From Mobula birostris (lineage: Eukaryota): a stretch of 64,000 bases of DNA. Under the pieces are notes generated by a model. The model did no database searches, was not told the DNA's origin, and saw only the letters and a list, made by a program, of their open reading frames with translations. A program made the position numbers and the translations under genes. Below are positions 19,129 to 64,000 of the stretch, piece after piece. The stretch spans positions 29,475,144 through 29,539,143 of the forward strand of contig NC_092380.1 of NCBI RefSeq assembly GCF_030028105.1, given 5' to 3'. Each line of letters opens with the position of its first letter. Position 1 is the stretch's first letter.

Positions 19129-19515
19129 ACATCTTCCTCTGTAATCTGTATAGGGGCCATGATAGGATAATCTGTATTGCCTCACTTCTGTAGACTCTGT
19201 GTCCATCTCCTGAATAAATACAAATGCAAAACAATCATTTAAGATTTCCCCCAGCTCTCTGGCTCCACATATGGATTACCATTCTGATCTTCCACAGGAC
19301 CAGTTTTATCCCTTGCAATCCTTTTGTTCTTAACATATCTGTAGAATCCCTTCGGATTCTCCTACAGCTTGTCTGCTAGGACAACCTCATGCATTCTTTT
19401 AGCCTTCCTGATTTCTTTCCTGTGTTCTCATGCATGTCTTATATTCCATAAGCACCTCATTTTTCCTTACCTGCCTATTCTGCTATGCACCCCTTTTTTT
19501 CTGAACTAGGGCCTC

Positions 19516-22500
19516 TGGTGGTGGCATCCATTAGTCTCGCGAGACCATGGATCTGCGCCTGGAAAGTCTTGCTTCAGTCTGTGTTAGAGCAGCGTCTGTT
19601 GTGGCTGTAGAGGCCCACACGGGAGTGACTGTCTCGGCTGCAGCGACTGCACTTGAAGGCACTGTCCTCCAGTGTTGTCTTGGAGCTGTTTTCCTGATGA
19701 GTGCACTTTTCTTCAGTAGCAAGCCTGAGCTTCTCTTCTCTTTTTAGACCTCTGCGTACTTCCAGCCTCCAGTGAGAGCGATCGCTTGCGATGTCCTCCC
19801 ACCTCTCGACGTTCATTTTCAGTGACTTCATGCCTCTCTTGCAAACGTCTTTGAAACAAAGATGGGGCCCCCCTTGTGCTCCCTTGCCGGAGGCCAGTTC
19901 CCCGTACAGTAGGTCTTCCGGGATCCTCCCGTCTGACATGCGGTGTACGTGGCCCAGCCAGCGGAGACGGCGTTGTTGGAGCAGGGTGAAGAGGCTGGGT
20001 ATCTGGGTGCGGGCCCGGACCTCATTGCTGGTGACTCGGTCAGTCCACTTGATATCCAGGCAGTGTCTCCGGCTGCAAAGGTGGAAGGCATTGAGACGCT
20101 GCTCTTGTCTGTAGTAGAGGCTCCAGGTCTCGCTGCCGTAAAGTAGTGTGCTGAGGTCGCAGGCCCTGTAGACTGCAACTTTGGTGTGCGTCGTCAGCTT
20201 TCTGTTCCCCCAGACTCTCTTTGTCAGCCTGGCGAATATTGAGGCTGCTCGTCCAATCCGTCTGTTGATCTCGGTGTCTAGGGAGAGGCTGTCCATGATG
20301 GTGGAGCCAAGGTATGTAAACTAGTGAACTATCTCCAGCTCGTAGTTGTTGATGGTAATGGCGGGGGGTGCTCAATACCTTGGCCCAACACGTTGGTTTT
20401 CTTCAGGCTGATGGTCAAGCTGAAGTCCTGGCAGGCTCTTGAGAAGCTGTCCATGAGGCGTTGCAGTTGCTCTTCAGAGTGTGTTGCCAGTGCCACGTCA
20501 TCTGCAAACAACATGTCCCTGATGAGTACTTCACAAACCTTGGTTTTTGCCCTCAGCCGGCACAGACTGAGCAGCCTCCCGTCCAGTCTGGTGTGGAGGT
20601 AGACACCATCAGTTGACGTTCCAAAGACGTGCTTCAGCATGACTGCGAAGAAGATGCCAAACAGGGTGGGGGCAAGCACACAGCCCTGCCTCACACCGCT
20701 GCGGATGTTGAAGGCCTCCGAAGAAGAGCCGTCAAACTGAACGACACCCTTCATGTCTGTGTGGAATGACCGAACTATCCTGAGGAGCCTCAGGGGGACA
20801 ACCAATCCTGCCGAGGATTTTGAACGGGCTGTCTCTGCTCACAAGGTCAAAGGCCTTCGTGAGGTCAATGAAAGCGATGTAGAGTGGTTGTCTTTGCTCT
20901 CTGCATTTCTCTTGTAGCTGTCGAAGGGAGAAGATCATGTCGATTGTGGAGCGTTCTGACCTGAAACCACACTGAGACTCGGCATATACCCTTTCGGCTA
21001 TTTTCTGCAGTCTGTTGAGGACCACACGGGTGAAGACCTTCCCAACAATGCTCAGCAAGGAGAATCCCCTGTAGCTGTTACAGTCACTTCCGTCCCATTT
21101 GTTCTTATATAGGGTGACAATGTTGCAGTCTCTCATGTCTTGCGGCACTGCTCCCTCTATCCAGCACTGGCACAGAAGTTCATGCAGGTGGTTTAGCAGG
21201 ACGCCCTTTGCACATTTGATGGCCTCTGGTGAAATGCCATCCAATCCTGGTGCCTTCCCAATGGGCAGGCTGTCGATGGCTTTACTCAGCTCTTCGGCAG
21301 TCGGCAATGCATCAAGTTCCTCCATGACAGGCAGGCATTCTATGGCGTCTAGCGCGCTGTCCGAGAGGCTGTTTTCTCTGGAGAAGAGTTCAGAGTAATG
21401 CTCCACCCATCTCTCCATCTGCTTGCCTTTGTCATTGATGGTCTCGCCTGTTATGGTTTTCAATGGTGCTGTCTTGCTCTGGGCTGGCCCGATGGCTTTC
21501 TTGATCCCCTCGTACACTCCACGGATGTTGCCTGTGTCAAATGATGACTGAATGCATTTGCATAGTTGTAGCCAGTCGTCATTTGCACAGCGTCTGGCTG
21601 TTTCCTGGGCCTTGCTTCTTGCTGTCCTTAGCGATTGTAGTGTTGCCTGGGTGGGGTGCCGTTTGTGTTCTAGTAGTGCAACACACTTCACCTCGATGAC
21701 AGCGGTGAGCTTACTTGAGCTCACTTCAAACCAGTCCTGTGTCTTGCCCCGTTTCTTCCCGAAGGCCTTGAGTGCAGTGCTGTGCATAGTGTCCCTGAGA
21801 GAGTCCCATCTCTGCTGAGCATCTCCTTCTGGTGGCTCTGCAAGGAGAGCATCCTCCAGTGACTTGATGAACTCTGCAGCTTTGTCTGGGTGTTGTGTCT
21901 CACCGGCATCGATGTGCTGCTTGGCGCACTGCATCTTCTTCGGCCGAAATCTGAACTTGCAGCAAACCAGAGAGTGATCCGTGTTGCAGTCCGCACTCTG
22001 AAAGGAGCGAGTCATGAGCACGTGTCTCAGGTGACGGCGTCTTGTGATTATCAGGTCTAGTTGGTGCCAGTGTTTGGAACAGGGATGCTGCCAAGACACT
22101 TTCTGCTGAGCTTTGGTCTGGAAGTAGGTGTTGGTGACACACAATTCGTGGAGCAGACAAAGCTCGAGCAGTCGTTGCCCGTTGTCATTCATGCTGCCAA
22201 TCCCATACCCCCCCAGGCAGCTTGGCCAGGAGTCGTGGTCGGCGCCCACTCTGGCGTTGAAGTAGCAGCAACTGTTCCTGACTTGGGATCTCCTGTATCA
22301 TCATTGAGAGCTGGTCGTAGAACTTGTTCTTTGTGTCTTGTGTAGAGTAGAGGGTTGGGGCATAGACGCTGACAAGGTTGACAGGCCCGTCGGATGTGTG
22401 GAGTCAAAGTGAGAAAATCTGCTCTGTCCCTTTCTCGCTAGGCTCACCATCTTCAGCAGCGAGTTCTTCACGGCAAAGCCGACACCATGCTCCCTGGTCT

Positions 22501-23543
22501 CGTCTGAGCCCTTCCCCTGCCAGAAGAAGGTATGGTCTCTTTCACGTGGGTTCCCGATTCTGTGAGACGTATCCCTTGGAGTGTTGCAATGTCCACTTGG
22601 AGTCTCGACAGTTCATTGTTAATCACTGCTGTCTTGCGTGTGTCGCTGATCTCCCGAAGGTTATCTGATAAACCAGTTGTCATGGTCTGTGTATTCCAGC
22701 ATCCTAGTCTGAGTGCTGGCTTCTTTCTTTGTCTTCTAGTTGTGCTTGGTGCAGCGTTTACAGTCTGCAGTTTGGGCTACCTGTATCCCTAAGCCCCACG
22801 CACCCAGTGGAGCGGGCGGGCTGTGACGGGGCAGCACCGAATTGTCTGGGGGCTGCCCAGCTTGAGGCGGGGGGGTAGCTGTCCTGTGAGACACGATGGT
22901 CTCTCCCTCCGTCGAAAGCAACCCCTGGCGCCTTGCTCTACGCCAATCGAGCACAGGCTCATAACCGGTGACTGCTGCTTTCCGTGTTGTGCCGACGCGG
23001 TGAGGCGACGCTGGAGTGTCCTCTCCAGGGCGCAGGCCTGGGCAAGGTTGTATAGAAGACCGGCAGTTGCCCATGCTGCAAGTCTCCCCTCTCCACGACA
23101 CCGATGTTGTCCAAGGGAAGGGCAAGGGCCGATACAGCTTGGCACCGGTGTCGTCACAGGAGTTGCCAGGATGAGGTTGAAGGCAACATCGGACTGCCTT
23201 AGGGACTCCGGCTCCGGATTTGTCCTCAGGGTTTACTCCCAAAGCCTTTCCCATGAGTGTGTATGGCCGCAAGGCAGCGGAGGTTTGTAATCAGAGTTTT
23301 CCCTCTCTTATTTGGACTGCCTTCCCAGGCTGACGAGCTCCATCTACCTGAAGCACTGGTTTTAAGGTGCCAGGACCCGCCTTCGCCCCTTCTCCTGTCA
23401 GTAGAAACAGTTCCGCCGGGCTTAGAGGCTAAGCCTCACGAGAAGGCCAGGAGTTGGACTTGGTTGTCAGAGGCTATATGAGGCGCATGCCGTGAGGAGC
23501 ACTTTTAGGTAGTGGGAGCTTGTCCCCACTACCACTCCTCGGC
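19516..23543 (-). mobile_element. Apparently full-length RTE-clade LINE, single APE-RT ORF broken by several frameshifts
   Basis: KTAVINNELSRL.VDIA.LQ, NGQRLLELC, HWHQLDLII, TDHSLV, ESQCGFR..RSTIDMIFSLRQLQEKCREQ..FIDLTKAFD, GVRQGCVLAPTLF, LFADD, LRWLGHVHRM and a C-terminal C2H2 finger (CSRCSR..LYSHNRRC). Long structured 5' UTR; 3' gtctcgcgagac palindrome and (CCA)n tail. Confidence 0.92.
23392..23543 (-). ncRNA. Candidate HDV-like self-cleaving ribozyme at the RTE 5' end
   Basis: P1 GCCGaG/CCCGGC, P2 CUCCUG/CAGGAG, P3 GCC/GGC closing loop UUCUCGUGA, GG after P1', J4/2 CUGA. The predicted G1 coincides with the element boundary. Confidence 0.5.
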
Positions 23544-23964
23544 TTGATAGGCACATGCAAGTTTTGTACTTTCAAAATTTCATTTTTGAAGGCCTCCCAA
23601 TTCTCTCACTTACCAAGTACACCTTTGCCAGACAACAGCCTGTCCCAGTCCACACTTGCCAGATCAATTCTGGTACCATGAAAGTTGGTCTTTATCCAAT
23701 TTATCATCTCAACACATGGGCCAAGCCTATCCTTTTCCATATTTACTTTGAAACTAATGGAATTATGATCACTAGGTATGTAGTGTTCCCCTACACAAAC
23801 TTGTGTCACTTGCCCTGTCTCATTCCCTAATAGTAGATAAAGTATTGCACGTTCTCTCATTAGGACTTCTACATACTAGTACAGGAGTTGGGAGATTGTT
23901 GCCGTTGTACACCGTGCTGGTGAGGGTGCACCAAGAGTATTGATGAGGATTAATAATGAGTCCT

Positions 23965-24655
23965 AGCCGGCTGGAGGTATGGTGGCATCAGCGTCAAGTT
24001 CAGAGCGAAGGCTCCCGAGCCAGCTCCCCCGGCACGCTTTCCATCCGCGCTAGGTTAAGCGTCGAGTTCAGAGCGAAGGCTCCCGAGCCAGCTCCCCTGG
24101 CACGCTTTCCATCCGCGCTAGGTTAAGCGTCGAGTTCAGAGCGAAGGCTCCCGAGCCAGCTCCCCTGGCACGCTTTCCATCCGCGCTAGGTTAAGCGTCG
24201 AGTTCAGAGCGAAGGCTCCCGAGCCAGCTCCCCTGGCACGCTTTCCATCCGCGCTAGGTTAAGCGTCGAGTTCAGAGCGAAGGCTCCCGAGCCAGCTCCC
24301 CGGCACGCTTTCCATCCGCGCTAGGTTAAGCGTCGAGTTCAGAGCGAAGGCTCCCGAGCCAGCTCCCCTGGCACGCTTTCCATCCGCGCTAGGTTAAGCG
24401 TCGAGTTCAGAGCGAAGGCACCCGAGCCAGCTCCCCCGGCACGCTTTCCATCCGCGCTAGGTTAAGCGTCGAGTTCAGAGCGAAGGCTCCCGAGCCAGCT
24501 CCCCGGCACGCTTTCCATCCGCGCTAGGTTAAGCGTCGAGCTAGCAACTCGACCTCATAAAAAAGAAATTGCCTGCTACAGAAACATCAACAGGAAAAAG
24601 TTGATAGCCTATGCTCTCTCGTGAGTTTAAAGGCAATTTCTCTCTTCTTTCTCTC
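23965..24655 (+). mobile_element. tRNA-derived SINE whose interior has expanded into a minisatellite
   Basis: A-box-like head (ggtatggtggcatcagcg), A-rich middle, CT-rich tail; 12-bp TSD ATAATGAGYCCT at 23953-23964 and 24656-24667. Confidence 0.6.
23991..24540 (+). repeat. Tandem repeat: 8 full copies of a 67-68 bp CpG-rich unit plus 8 bp
   Basis: Unit gcgtcgagttcagagcgaaggctcccgagccagctcccc(t)ggcacgctttccatccgcgctaggttaa starts at 23991, 24059, 24127, 24195, 24263, 24330, 24398, 24466, with a partial copy at 24533. Confidence 0.97.
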
Positions 24656-58824: not shown

Positions 58825-59143
58825 AATAAAGGCATCTGTTAGTCTTGCGAGACCATGGATTTGCGCCTGGAAAGTCTTCACTCTCCAGGGCGCAGGCCTG
58901 GGCAAGGTTGTATGGAAGACCAGCAGCTGCCTATGCTGCAAGTCTCCCCTCTCCACGACACCAGTGTTGTCTAAGGGAAGGGCATTAGGACCCATACGGC
59001 TTGGCACCAGTGTTGTTGCAGAGCAATGGGTGATTAAGTGCCTTGCTCAAGGACACAACACGTTGCCTCGGCTGGGACTCGAACTCACGACCTTCAGGTC
59101 GCCAGTCCAATGTCTTAACCACTTGGCCACGTGCCCACTAGGA
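58825..59143 (-). mobile_element. tRNA-derived SINE with CORE-like domain and bipartite RTE-derived body/tail
   Basis: A box TGGCCAAGTGG, B box GAGTTCGAGTC, then TGTGTCCTTGAGCAAGGCACTTAA. 58881-59020 matches RTE 23021-23160 and 58831-58878 matches RTE 19523-19570. 11-bp TSD AGGAAGGTATA (58814-58824 / 59144-59154). Confidence 0.9.
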
Positions 59144-61650: not shown

Positions 61651-64000
61651 ATGGATGGAGATAAGATTGTAAGTTGGTGTGAATTGGAGGAGGTACCGGT
61701 GAATCATGCGTGTGTGTTAAGTGGGGTTGATTATCGCATTCCGGCAGATGTACTGGTGCGAGGGTTGAGTTTGATTAAAAGTATACAGGGCCCAGTTTGA
61801 GGTGAGAACTGACAACAACCCCCTCACTTATATCCTGACCTCAGCAAAGCTGGACGCTACTGGGCACCGGTGGTTAGCAGCCTTGTCTCCCTATGAGTTC
61901 AGCCTGAAGTACCGCCCGGGGAGTCGGAACATCGATGCAGATGCCCTGTCTCGTCGGGCGCACGACGAGTCGGGCACGGCCAAGGAGTGGAAGAGTGTCC
62001 CTGCCCCGGGAGTAAAGGCCGTGTGTCAAGTTGGGAGCGACGGGGAAGTAAGAGCCCAGATGGGAACAGATCAGGCAGTAGATCAATTGGGGGTTGACGA
62101 TGATGCGCTGCCCACTGTTTACTGTAATGTGACTGCTCTGAGGAACAGGCAGCTGCCGGAGTTGAGTCCCCAGGAAGTAAAGGCGGCTCAGCGTGATGAC
62201 CCAAGCCTTGGCACTATCTGGTACGCGGTTAGCCAGGGTGATATGGGGCAGGTGGAGAAGGCGAAACATGCCTCCGTTCCCCTACTACTGAAGGAGTGGC
62301 CTCGGTTGAAGCTGAAGAACCACGTCTTGTACCGGGTCACGTCGCCTCCGGACCACCCCAGGCGCTGGCAGCTGGTCATGCCTGAGAAGTATCGGAAGAC
62401 TGTGCTCCAGGCACTACATGATGATTCGGGGCACTTAGGGGTAGAGAAGACCTATGGATTAGTCAAGGACCGGTTTTACTGGCCCTGGATGAGGGGGGAG
62501 GTGGAAGAATACTGTAAGACCTGTAGTCGTTGCGTCAGGAGGAAGACCTTGCCTGCGCAGGCGGCCCCGTTATCCCACTTGCAGAGTGCGGGACCCATGG
62601 ACCTGGTGTGTATGGATTTCTATTGTCTATTGAGCCAGACACCAGCAACACCGCCAATGTCTTGGTCCTCACGGATCACTACACTAGATATGTGCAGGCT
62701 TTTCCTACTAAGGATCAGAAAGCGACTACAGTGGCGAAGGTGTTACGGGAGAAGTACTTTGTTCATTATAGCCTTCCCCAGTGGATCCATAGTGATCAGG
62801 GACGGGACTTCGAGAGCAGGCTTATCCATGAATTACTGGGTATCCTTGGGGTTGAGAAATCCAGAACCACCCCCCATCACCCGCAGGGTGATCCTCAGCC
62901 CGGGAGGTTTAACCGGACCCTGCTGGACATGCTCGGCGCTTTGGAGATTGGACAGAAGAGTAAGTGGAGTCGGCGCATTGCCCATTTGGTTCATTGTTAC
63001 AATTGTACTCGCAATGATGCTACGGGGTACTCGCCCTACTATCTGATGTTGGGACAGGAAGCGAGGTTGCCCATTGATCTGTGTTTTGGGACTGAAGCGG
63101 GTGAAATACCTGCGAAGCCATGTCTGAAGTACGTGTCCGATATAAGGAGAGAATTGAAAAGGGCGTACGAGTTGGCTGAGGCGGCAGCCACCAAGCAGAA
63201 CCAGCGGAATAAGAAGAGGTACGATCAGAAAGTAAAGTTCGTCCAGCTATTGCCAGGAGACCGAGTCCTTACCCAGAATTTAGGACTAACTGGTAAGCAC
63301 AAGTTGGCAGACCATTGGGCAGCCACCCCCTATGTGGTGGAGAGTCAGATGCCGAATCTCCCTGTTTTCCGGGTGAGACCCAAGGATGGGAAGGGGCCTG
63401 TCAAGGTATTCCATCAGAACCACCTGTTACCTCTGGGTCGAGAGGTGAAGGTAGACCCAGAGCCCGAATGGGAGTTTATGCCTAGTACGAGGACTCTGCG
63501 AGGGCGCGGGACGAGGGAAGAGCCCACTGCGAAGGAGACAGGGCCGGTCCCCACCTCGAAAAGGGATACGTCATCGGAAGACGATGATTCGGACGTGTTT
63601 CCGTTCGCTGATTCCCCGGTGCCGGGAGAAGAGGCTCCTGGCCCTTCCTTCACTGAGTTAGGGTAACCGAGGAAGGGTGTTGCAGAGCCGCCTGTATTAC
63701 AGCCGGAATTGGGGGAGGGGAAGGTGGAACCAGAACCTGAGGCAGAGGGCTCACAGGGGCTGAGGGATCCCGGTGAGGGGGAAGGTCCGACAGATAGGCC
63801 TGGGGGGTCACCTGGGGTGTCTGAACAGGGAGAGTCAGCAGAGGAAGTCCAGAGGCCTCAGAGGAGTAGACATCCCCTGGAGAGACTGATGTATACAGTG
63901 CCGGGAGAACAGGGTGTGATCTCTACTGCCCTGGAAAGTTATGTCACTGCTTTATACACCTGGGTTGGGTTTTGTGTTTTACAAGGAGCAATGGTGAACC
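61651..64000 (+). mobile_element. Internally deleted Ty3/Gypsy element: gag start fused to RNase H end, then integrase (frameshift near 62620); runs off the window
   Basis: MDGDKIVSWCELEEVPVNHACVLSG; VRTDNNPLTYILTSAKLDATGHRWLAAL..NIDADALSR; HHCC LHDDSGHLG..CKTCSRC; LVCMDF / TDHYTRY / IHSDQGRDFES / PQGD..GRFNRTL. Confidence 0.9.

Follow-up and report, generated by a model that had tools for sequence, protein, structure and literature searches.

Introduction

RTE LINEs are almost alone among LINE clades in repeatedly yielding bipartite elements and SINEs, a bias that is unexplained (PMC5786205). The described bipartite RTE-derived SINEs and non-autonomous RTEs, among them WALLSI2, MAR1, Bov-A/Bov-tA and SINE2_Gav (Kojima 2018, PMC5786205), are the closest counterparts of the elements considered here; the same paper has such derivatives arising 'for unknown reasons' and does not mention pairing, and by eye its printed sequences contain stems at the junctions.

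Pairing of retroelement RNA ends across kilobases has a counterpart in Ty1, in which, according to PMC7969010, the short complementary sequences CYC5 and CYC3 near the RNA ends are among the cis-elements needed for mobility; Ty1, however, is an LTR element whose priming, by tRNA, takes place in a particle, whereas RTE is a non-LTR element copied by target-primed reverse transcription. Unlike those of Ty1, the RTE arms turn over fully between families and pair beside a 3' hairpin, and the likeness would be one of working principle only, no homology being claimed. In flaviviruses, it is through a 5' hairpin and a long-range duplex that the polymerase reaches the 3' end; that system deploys an RNA virus RdRp and sequences unrelated to RTE, and would serve as an analogy only.

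A terminal 3' hairpin common to LINE and SINE, as found here, is a feature of R2, L2/UnaL2 and plant RTE (PMC12503042, PMC3747384, PMC6007223). In these cases of stringent 3'-tail recognition the 3' structure is described as self-contained, whereas in the RTE described below it adjoins a helix to which the 5'UTR contributes the second strand. The plant RTE SINEs Au and TS are described, in PMC6007223 and PMC3747384, as sharing only the 3' end, which counts against the arrangement proposed here. R2 SIDEs and template jumps, as presented in PMC3414825, likewise involve internally deleted non-autonomous elements and RT jumps from one RNA to another with untemplated letters at the joints, but are rare and have no duplex link, whereas RTE jumps recur at one base-paired site. 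No account of 5'-3' pairing of RTE ends was found in the literature searched (some older print and patents lay outside its reach).

The RTE element and its SINE

The window, i.e. the whole 64,000-nt stretch of Mobula birostris DNA analysed, contains an RTE-clade LINE with the following parts.

19513..23547, minus strand: RTE-clade LINE copy of family A, ~4.03 kb, frameshifted
23392..23547, minus strand: predicted HDV-like ribozyme at the family A 5' end, its helices fitted to the family sequence by eye
23453-23448/23397-23392 (P2) and 23414-23409 (P1'), minus strand: predicted ribozyme helices; the P1 5' strand is absent from this copy
23280..23355, minus strand: conserved RTE 5'UTR domain resembling, by eye, the RTE half of the Ceph domain
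23054..23088, minus strand: conserved 5'UTR hairpin H5, immediately upstream of the 5' arm
23037..23043, minus strand: conserved GCNCARG-like heptamer, anchoring the start of the 5' arm (5'UTR alignment)
23021..23034, minus strand: 5' arm of the clasp, the 3' end of which is a deletion hot spot
23011..23016, minus strand: 6-bp hairpin seen in the sequence that would compete locally for the inner half of the 5' arm
19574..22701, minus strand: single ORF (APE endonuclease, RT and C-terminal zinc finger), broken in this copy
19576-19574, minus strand: ORF stop codon
19554..19566, minus strand: 3' arm of the clasp, 8 nt past the stop codon and adjoining the terminal hairpin
19523..19552, minus strand: 3' terminal hairpin (outer stem, 2-nt bulge, inner stem), followed by a CAC-type tail

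With a single APE-RT ORF lacking RNase H and a short, microsatellite-ended 3'UTR, the element has the make-up of an RTE. Domain searches located RVT_1 in fragments of the window copy, and Exo_endo_phos plus RVT_1 with no other domain in the intact relatives L051 (65% identical to family A) and L063. Copies of family A are 90-96% identical, and their majority sequence comprises an open frame of 1,050 aa, with no in-frame AUG upstream of the first endonuclease motif, and a 3'UTR of ~50 nt ending in a CAC-type tail, the RTE-type combination of short 3'UTR and microsatellite. The RT tree contained only relatives without established names, with L107, L137 and L141 as outgroups; by eye, and against the supplement of PMC5786205, the UTRs of family A resemble those of RTE-3_BF and RTE-12_AMi, and those of family B RTE-3_AMi, the Ceph-like domain having been compared with RTE-3_BF 325-414. 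The family 5' end is sharp, and helices P1, P2 and P3 of an HDV-like fold could be placed on it by eye, the window copy being without its first 13 nt; an Rfam search returned no match within 19400-23700, the predicted ribozyme included.

The window also contains a SINE with corresponding parts.

58825..59138, minus strand: bipartite SINE (tRNA head, CORE-like segment, RTE 5' part, RTE 3' part)
59154-59144 / 58824-58814: target-site duplication (TSD) of the SINE, 11 nt
59075..59129, minus strand: tRNA-like head with Pol III box A (59129-59119) and box B (59084-59075), by motif match
59034..59056, minus strand: CORE-like segment, 20/23 letters matching the WALLSI2/THER1 CORE by eye
58881..59016, minus strand: part derived from LINE 5'UTR 23154-23021 (self-BLAST), with H5 at 58948-58914, the heptamer at 58903-58897 and the 5' arm at 58894-58881
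58831..58878, minus strand: part derived from the LINE 3' end (self-BLAST), with the 3' arm at 58874-58862 and the terminal hairpin at 58860-58831

The Pol III boxes, the two LINE parts and dispersed copies with TSDs identify this element, at the level of sequence, as a bipartite RTE-derived tRNA SINE, for which there were 5,325 candidates in G000; ARAGORN called no tRNA in the 10 loci submitted, the SINE head included. Folding of its hairpin region gave a z-score of -4.65 (0/200 shuffles), and the spacer between the arms was of a single length in 31/31 aligned copies.

Pairing within the window element

Recalculation confirmed, in both sequence and position, the 13-bp 5'UTR-3'UTR duplex with one bulge that had been claimed in an earlier note on this DNA: on the minus strand, 23034-23021 pairs with 19566-19554, ~3.5 kb away in the LINE, with a bulged C and a single G-U pair (-20.1 kcal/mol), and an extra C-G pair (23035/19553) lengthens it. 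The placing of the SINE arms at the fusion point, separated by a 6-nt loop, was also correct, the self-BLAST parts being 59016-58881 and 58878-58831 and the arms flanking the joint. The G-U wobble had been offered as evidence of the strand on which the duplex acts, and for the window copy it serves as such (plus-strand version, -16.6 kcal/mol), but it fails as a general argument: the stems of 13 families are nearly pure Watson-Crick (four G-U versus four A-C), and assignment of the strand from wobble was consequently rejected. In 11/13 families the antisense duplex is equal or greater in stability.

This single element proves little, because 5/150 shuffled 3' segments matched equally well somewhere in the 5'UTR, a result barely above chance, and because the duplex is absent from the minimum free energy (MFE) structure of the whole LINE RNA; it is the cross-family comparison that is probative. 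Whole-RNA MFE structures contained the duplex in 3/6 families, that of the window not among them, and the procedure, unreliable over 4 kb, was dropped as a test; two-fragment folding contained it in 9/13. The picture of the RNA ends looped together survives as long-range pairing but not as an end-to-end circle: because the 5' arm lies mid-5'UTR, about 525 nt from the family A 5' end, what is looped is the coding region. The 6-bp competitor hairpin is missing from the SINE, and by eye L051 and L052 have a matching hairpin with changed letters.

Pairing across RTE families

The comparison comprised 13 autonomous RTE families with proteins 40-85% identical. Because the arms do not align between clades, which makes column-wise covariation across them impossible, a cognate-versus-foreign matrix was chosen in which the 5' arm of each family was paired with its own and with other families' 3' ends. 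Cognate duplexes averaged -20.9 kcal/mol versus -8.8 ± 4.1 kcal/mol for foreign combinations across the 13 families (0/200,000 permutations), with z-scores of -3.3 to -5.7 in 13/13; when confined to 8 clade representatives, cognate pairing was reached by 1/40,320 permutations, and the signal was lost when either search interval was moved by 20 nt. The pairing position is homologous in all 13 families, just past H5, a hairpin with double-sided changes at 7/7 predicted pairs among 11 families and with G-U pairs kept on the sense strand. Arms from different clades share background-level identity only. Double-sided arm changes separate the sister families C/L058 and L068/L069, and by eye double-sided stem changes are present in the printed Repbase sequences of BovB/BovA2, RTE-11_AMi/SINE2_Gav and MonoRep87. 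In these 13 families, complementary 5' and 3' sequences are conserved as a pair, as in the cyclisation elements of retroelement and viral RNAs. A lack of covariation across families would have refuted the reading in the earlier note; pairing instead persists with changed letters, and on the strength of these comparisons the long-range 5'-3' pairing is real and under selection.

The anchor was defined after the first scan, and that for L052 was chosen with the arm already known. For B2, L063, L057 and L060 an unanchored scan chose another site, and the anchored search recovered the duplex; when a motif rule was applied, the top 5'UTR site in an unanchored scan was the homologous arm in 9/13, and at most 1/25 shuffles were as good in 8/17. 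Anchors set automatically on hairpins did not work for several of the families. Metagenomes furnished 80 loci, 13 of them with both UTRs, and 9 entered the anchored test; L061, L064 and L066 were tested separately, L093 was dropped as unalignable, and the three outgroups stood outside the anchored test. No duplex was found in L064 (293/500 shuffles as good), and L066 had one at only one of two candidate anchors. Viral contigs contained no relative, and none of 27 loci in prokaryote genome contigs was a full-length clade member. A stop codon lay inside, or ≤3 nt from, the 22-nt 3' interval in 12/13 families.

Deletion copies and chimeras

Copy counts were drawn from the best 30-40 matches per search, and the proportions are not genome-wide. 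Among the matches listed for the first 206 nt of family A, 26/30 copies were deletions, with about 20 different joints and with breaks at the arm or ≤52 nt past it (16 in its last 4 nt, 23 within 10 nt past it); no break fell in the 300 nt before the arm among these 26 deletions. The corresponding counts among the matches listed were 17 of 26 deletions in a second copy set and 13 of 25 for family C, and in contigs from four other organisms the 15 best-supported of 525 joints were all arm-to-arm. The joint of the window SINE recurs in the headless bipartite copies L280, L284, L286, L339 and L349. Among the matches listed, TSDs surrounded whole units in 9/19 (family D), 15/25 (A) and 7/12 (C) cases, as against 15/342, 18/600 and 3/132 in the respective controls. 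Stem-guided deletion and a functional composite, posed as alternatives in the earlier note, both hold, because the duplex is kept in never-deleted autonomous elements while the deletion joints lie at the duplex.

A second type of joint was provided by a SINE that has captured the family D 3' tail and has no 5' arm of its own. Among the matches listed, 20/22 copies carry D 5'UTR ending at the arm, with 13 different 5' joints of 4-11 nt and a 3' joint of one length in 21/22, and D 5'UTR was present in 0/8 copies bearing the SINE's other tail; one D-tailed copy, L307, was inserted without any 5'UTR. The acquired 5'UTR suggests that the clasp may pair in trans. Contigs bridging the chimera were few, in two runs, and offer a weak hint. 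RNA ligation before copying (PMC6789731) was considered as an origin of the chimeras, but the untemplated A-rich joints would fit RT jumps better.

Proposed mechanism and alternatives

The complementarity occupies a fixed position and persists despite fully changed arm letters, and deletion and chimera joints alike fall at the duplex. It is likely that the RNA clasps its own ends into a handle for the copying enzyme. The 5' hairpin, long-range duplex and terminal hairpin would probably together constitute a clasp bound by the element's protein to start reverse transcription, and it is this composite that the RT would recognise. We lean, with less assurance, towards the wider proposition that RTE-clade RTs recognise a two-part 5'UTR-3'UTR handle, the 5' half of which can be lent in trans, and that the RT jumps onto it. 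The duplex would be present in the RNP while target-primed reverse transcription proceeds. Once the 3' arm is copied, the RT would often jump over the duplex's inner end and land on the 5' arm; the 3.5-kb loop would thereby be lost and bipartite elements of ~590 nt would result. The joining of a tRNA-CORE head to one of these would have produced the window SINE, in which the clasp is now a local hairpin, and a template in which the 3' tail alone is present could borrow its 5' half from LINE RNA in trans. RTE SINEs would be bipartite because both halves of the clasp are needed, and the same need would bar remobilisation of 5'-truncated copies.

Such a covarying clasp would offer one mechanism for the biased origin of these derivatives, the positions of their joints and the conserved mid-5'UTR domain, and would add non-LTR retrotransposons to the LTR elements and viruses among which RNA cyclisation is found. 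A two-part handle would act as a built-in full-length check and as a factory for bipartite elements and SINEs, and its family-specific pairing code could be rewritten so that any template fits its helper. In the RTE-1_MD gene-insertion system, the payload of the template sits between cognate 5' and 3' UTRs, and screening of UTRs has brought improvements (PMC13708176). Should the clasp hold, it would indicate the UTR bases of importance in such templates, and jumps across the duplex could delete their payload.

The best-surviving alternative, which we consider unlikely though deserving of weight, is that the duplex, though genuine, owes its selection to translation, to RNA stability or to a switch from translation to copying, the arms being kept in derivatives as the duplex steers deletions. 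Family A has the missing upstream AUG, a predicted self-cleaving and hence uncapped 5' end and a hairpin competing with the 5' arm; a ribosome terminating at the stop codon beside the 3' arm would open the duplex, although short 3'UTRs put the arm close to that codon in any case. The deletion hot spot would by itself account for the positions of the joints, and L307 moved without a 5'UTR. Against this, non-coding SINEs retain the stem with changed letters (printed sequences, by eye; other parent LINEs are possible), and a SINE transcribed by Pol III that bears the 3' tail alone has LINE 5'UTR on 20/22 insertions among the matches listed, which places 5' RNA in the copying complex of a template that is not translated.

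It is very improbable that the complementarity works not in the RNA template but in the newly made DNA, by fold-back of the cDNA or by 5' joining: the stability of the antisense duplexes and the even balance of G-U and A-C would suit it, but the jumps reach a 5' arm that is still uncopied, requiring it near the RT as RNA, and sense-strand G-U pairs are retained in the flanking H5 and, by eye, in the printed stems of RTE-3_AMi, RTE-11_AMi and RTE1_LA. Chance complementarity in one LINE, merely marking one deletion, would accommodate the shuffles and the MFE structure of the window element, but is scarcely credible when 13/13 families pair at the homologous position with family-specific letters and dozens of different joints share one position across three families and five organisms.

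The window LINE and its SINE

Two elements of the host, an animal with a genome of 4.0 Gb, are concerned:

23547-19513, minus strand: decayed, near full-length LINE of RTE family A
59138-58825, minus strand: SINE with a tRNA-like head, a CORE-like segment, 136 nt of LINE 5'UTR and the LINE 3' end

The LINE has one open reading frame (APE endonuclease, reverse transcriptase (RT) and C-terminal zinc finger) between a 5'UTR of 850 nt and a 3'UTR of 50 nt, and the SINE, for which the host genome holds 5,325 candidates, has the layout of the WALLSI2/MAR1-type bipartite RTE SINEs described in the accessible part of PMC5786205; both belong to known kinds and are ordinary examples of them. The earlier note had claimed that a 5'UTR arm (23034-23021, minus strand) and a 3'UTR arm (19566-19554, minus strand) pair in the LINE RNA, a duplex termed here the clasp, which the SINE keeps as a local hairpin; on recheck the arms, coordinates, bulge, wobble and 6-nt SINE loop were all correct.

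The 5' end of the family is sharp, with putative HDV-like ribozyme helices and a long J1/2 insert (23547-23392, minus strand; copies L031-L050), and the window copy lacks its first 13 nt. The first in-frame ATG lies within the first endonuclease motif (22701-22681, minus strand), so translation of family A would begin at an upstream non-AUG codon. A 6-bp local hairpin in the LINE (23028-23011, minus strand), kept with altered letters in two relatives (families L051 and L052), competes with the inner half of the clasp and is a possible switch.

Pairing of the arms across families

As the window 5'UTR found an equally good partner in 5 of 150 shuffled 3' segments, and the duplex was absent from the minimum free energy (MFE) structure of the whole window LINE RNA, other autonomous families were gathered: B, C and D from the host genome, with full-length elements added from metagenome contigs, where 13 of 80 loci had both UTRs. 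The 5'UTRs of these families could be aligned, in the order hairpin (H5), GCNCARG-like heptamer and hypervariable stretch, and H5 exhibited double-sided changes at 7 of 7 pairs among 11 families. The 5' arm window was the 26 nt following the heptamer, and the 3' arm window the 22 nt preceding the hairpin at the 3' end (the terminal hairpin). With this anchor, set after a first scan (that of family L052 with its arm already known), arm pairing surpassed shuffles in all 13 families (z -3.3 to -5.7; at most 7 in 1,000), the duplex being detected only via the anchor in B2, L063, L057 and L060.

Mean duplex energy across the 13 families was -20.9 kcal/mol for cognate arms versus -8.8 kcal/mol for foreign arms; only sister families outranked the cognate partner, which came first in 12 of 13 columns and in 9 of 13 rows, and none of 200,000 permutations matched the cognate signal. 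With one family per clade, cognate pairing held in 8 of 8 (1 in 40,320 permutations) for two choices of representatives, and a 20-nt move of either arm window abolished the signal. The outcome that the earlier note had named as refuting, a lack of covariation across families, was not observed in these 13 families. Since the proteins are 40-85% identical and arms of different clades are alike only at background level, the whole arm has been swapped out repeatedly with complementarity kept throughout.

In a neighbouring clade, the anchored duplex passed in L061 (0 of 500 shuffles) and at one of two candidate anchors in L066, and none stood above shuffles in L064. Inspection by eye of sequences printed in the accessible part of PMC5786205 revealed junction stems with other letters in CoeSINE4/5, SINE2-1_PXu, HaSE2_DP and WALLSI, further stems in SINE2_Gav, SINE-1_Pmo and MonoRep87, such stems in the autonomous BovB, RTE-3_AMi, RTE-11_AMi and RTE1_LA, and weak stems in SINE2-2_ACar and SINE2-1_EC. 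The 3' end of L062 (4537-4590) resembles by eye the tail of platypus MonoRep87A/B, the origin of which is given as unknown in the same part of PMC5786205.

Deletion joints in genome copies

The best 30 family A copies retrieved with the first 206 nt, a query ending 300 nt before the arm, comprised 26 internal deletions, three copies that continue through and one that ends inside the arm without a 3' part. Breakpoints fell in the arm's final four letters (16), within 10 nt after it (7) or within 52 nt (3), with none of the 26 in the 300 nt upstream; in every deletion the sequence picked up again no later than the outer part of the 3' arm, through about 20 different joints (counted by eye), many with extra A's. 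A second query, ending in the arm and therefore biased against earlier breaks, placed 17 of 26 deletions among the matches listed at the same four letters, one locus being common to both sets. In family C, 13 of the 25 copies listed broke no more than 20 nt from the arm end, and an amplified family B subfamily lacks 300 nt from just after the arm. Of 525 joints in contigs from four further organisms, the 15 with the best support all link 19558-19579 to 22989-23024.

About half of the whole units have flanking target-site duplications, versus 2-4% in controls, so the deletion units are single insertions. As its own joint is present in five headless copies and its spacer has one length in 31 of 31 copies, the SINE would derive from one among many deletion products.

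The family B subfamily with a full open reading frame has its 300-nt 5'UTR deletion from about 12 nt past the arm (copies L158, L173, L167, L176, L202, L208, L210 and L211). Several family A deletion copies (L277, L282, L283, L286, L289, L297 and L299) all start at family positions 311-320 (about 23350-23340 in the window), before the Ceph-like domain, a candidate second start or stop site.

Proposed mechanism

The arms are complementary, fixed in position, subject to turnover of letters and the place where joints cluster, and the duplex very probably exists in the ribonucleoprotein. In the folded RNA the long-range duplex would adjoin both H5 and the terminal hairpin, an arrangement obtained by two-fragment folding in 9 of 13 families and in the whole-RNA MFE of 3 of 6. 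The element's protein would bind this unit; the RT, having copied the 3' arm, would be left next to the 3' end of the 5' arm, so that its jumps would lose the loop. The products would retain the complete handle, and so be mobile again or acquire a Pol III head. The earlier note's argument for the sense strand from a G-U wobble fails (4 G-U versus 4 A-C positions across families; antisense duplex equally stable in 11 of 13), and the sense-RNA reading derives instead from the jump footprints.

The duplex probably serves as an RT recognition element. The main alternative, that it serves translation or stability with deletion as a by-product, is unlikely, although in family A no AUG precedes the first endonuclease motif, in 12 of 13 families the stop codon is where the 3' arm lies, a SINE copy (L307) inserted alone, and plant RTE SINEs are described in the accessible parts of PMC6007223 and PMC3747384 as having only the 3' end in common.

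A foreign SINE with a family D tail

Pairing in trans is suggested by a natural counterpart of a split-template experiment. A separate tRNA SINE bears either of two tails among its best 30 copies: 22 have the D tail (3' arm plus terminal hairpin), and 8 one unrelated to D, with upstream D sequence in 0 of these 8.

L303-L322, L327 and L328 (e.g. L268:1132-1831): D chimera loci

In 20 of the 22 D-tailed copies the SINE's first base is joined to a D 5'UTR that stops within the 5' arm, at positions that follow one another from copy to copy; the remaining two have an arm remnant only and no 5'UTR (L307), respectively. The 5' joints are of 13 kinds, each 4-11 nt long, whereas the length of the 3' joint is the same in 21 of 22; the SINE's own 5' arm candidate is poor (-7.7 versus -16.2 kcal/mol). 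The simplest reading is trans pairing of tail-only SINE RNA with a LINE 5'UTR, followed by a jump of the RT from the SINE 5' end onto the arm, much as R2 RT jumps from RNA to RNA (PMC3414825, accessible part); the chimeras would be a candidate footprint of such pairing. An origin from several chimeric masters, each formed independently, would require that event to have recurred many times. A few contigs in two other runs bridge the D chimera.

Relation to known systems

Flavivirus cyclisation provides an analogy for the clasp, which is real and general inside this RTE lineage, and the function of which we infer. Among known mechanisms, Ty1 CYC5/CYC3 cyclisation (PMC7969010, accessible part) comes nearest. 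A full-text literature search found no report of RTE 5'-3' pairing (subscription papers, patents and supplements may hold one), nor does any appear in the accessible parts of PMC5786205, PMC6007223, PMC7245038, PMC3747384, PMC13708176, PMC3414825 and PMC12503042; the clasp is apparently unpublished. It accounts for an open question stated in the literature, and an existing assay could test it.

Other features

Elsewhere in the window are a repeated histone gene cluster with H2A/H2B/H4 frames (28000-57600; units 75-86% identical, two N stretches), a tandem repeat of about 68-nt units, 97-98% identical (23990-24540), and frames like the RNase H/integrase region of an LTR retroelement (61775-63666, plus strand). 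RTE-like retrotransposon contigs in prokaryotic genome assemblies (L131-L157) are most likely misbinned host DNA.
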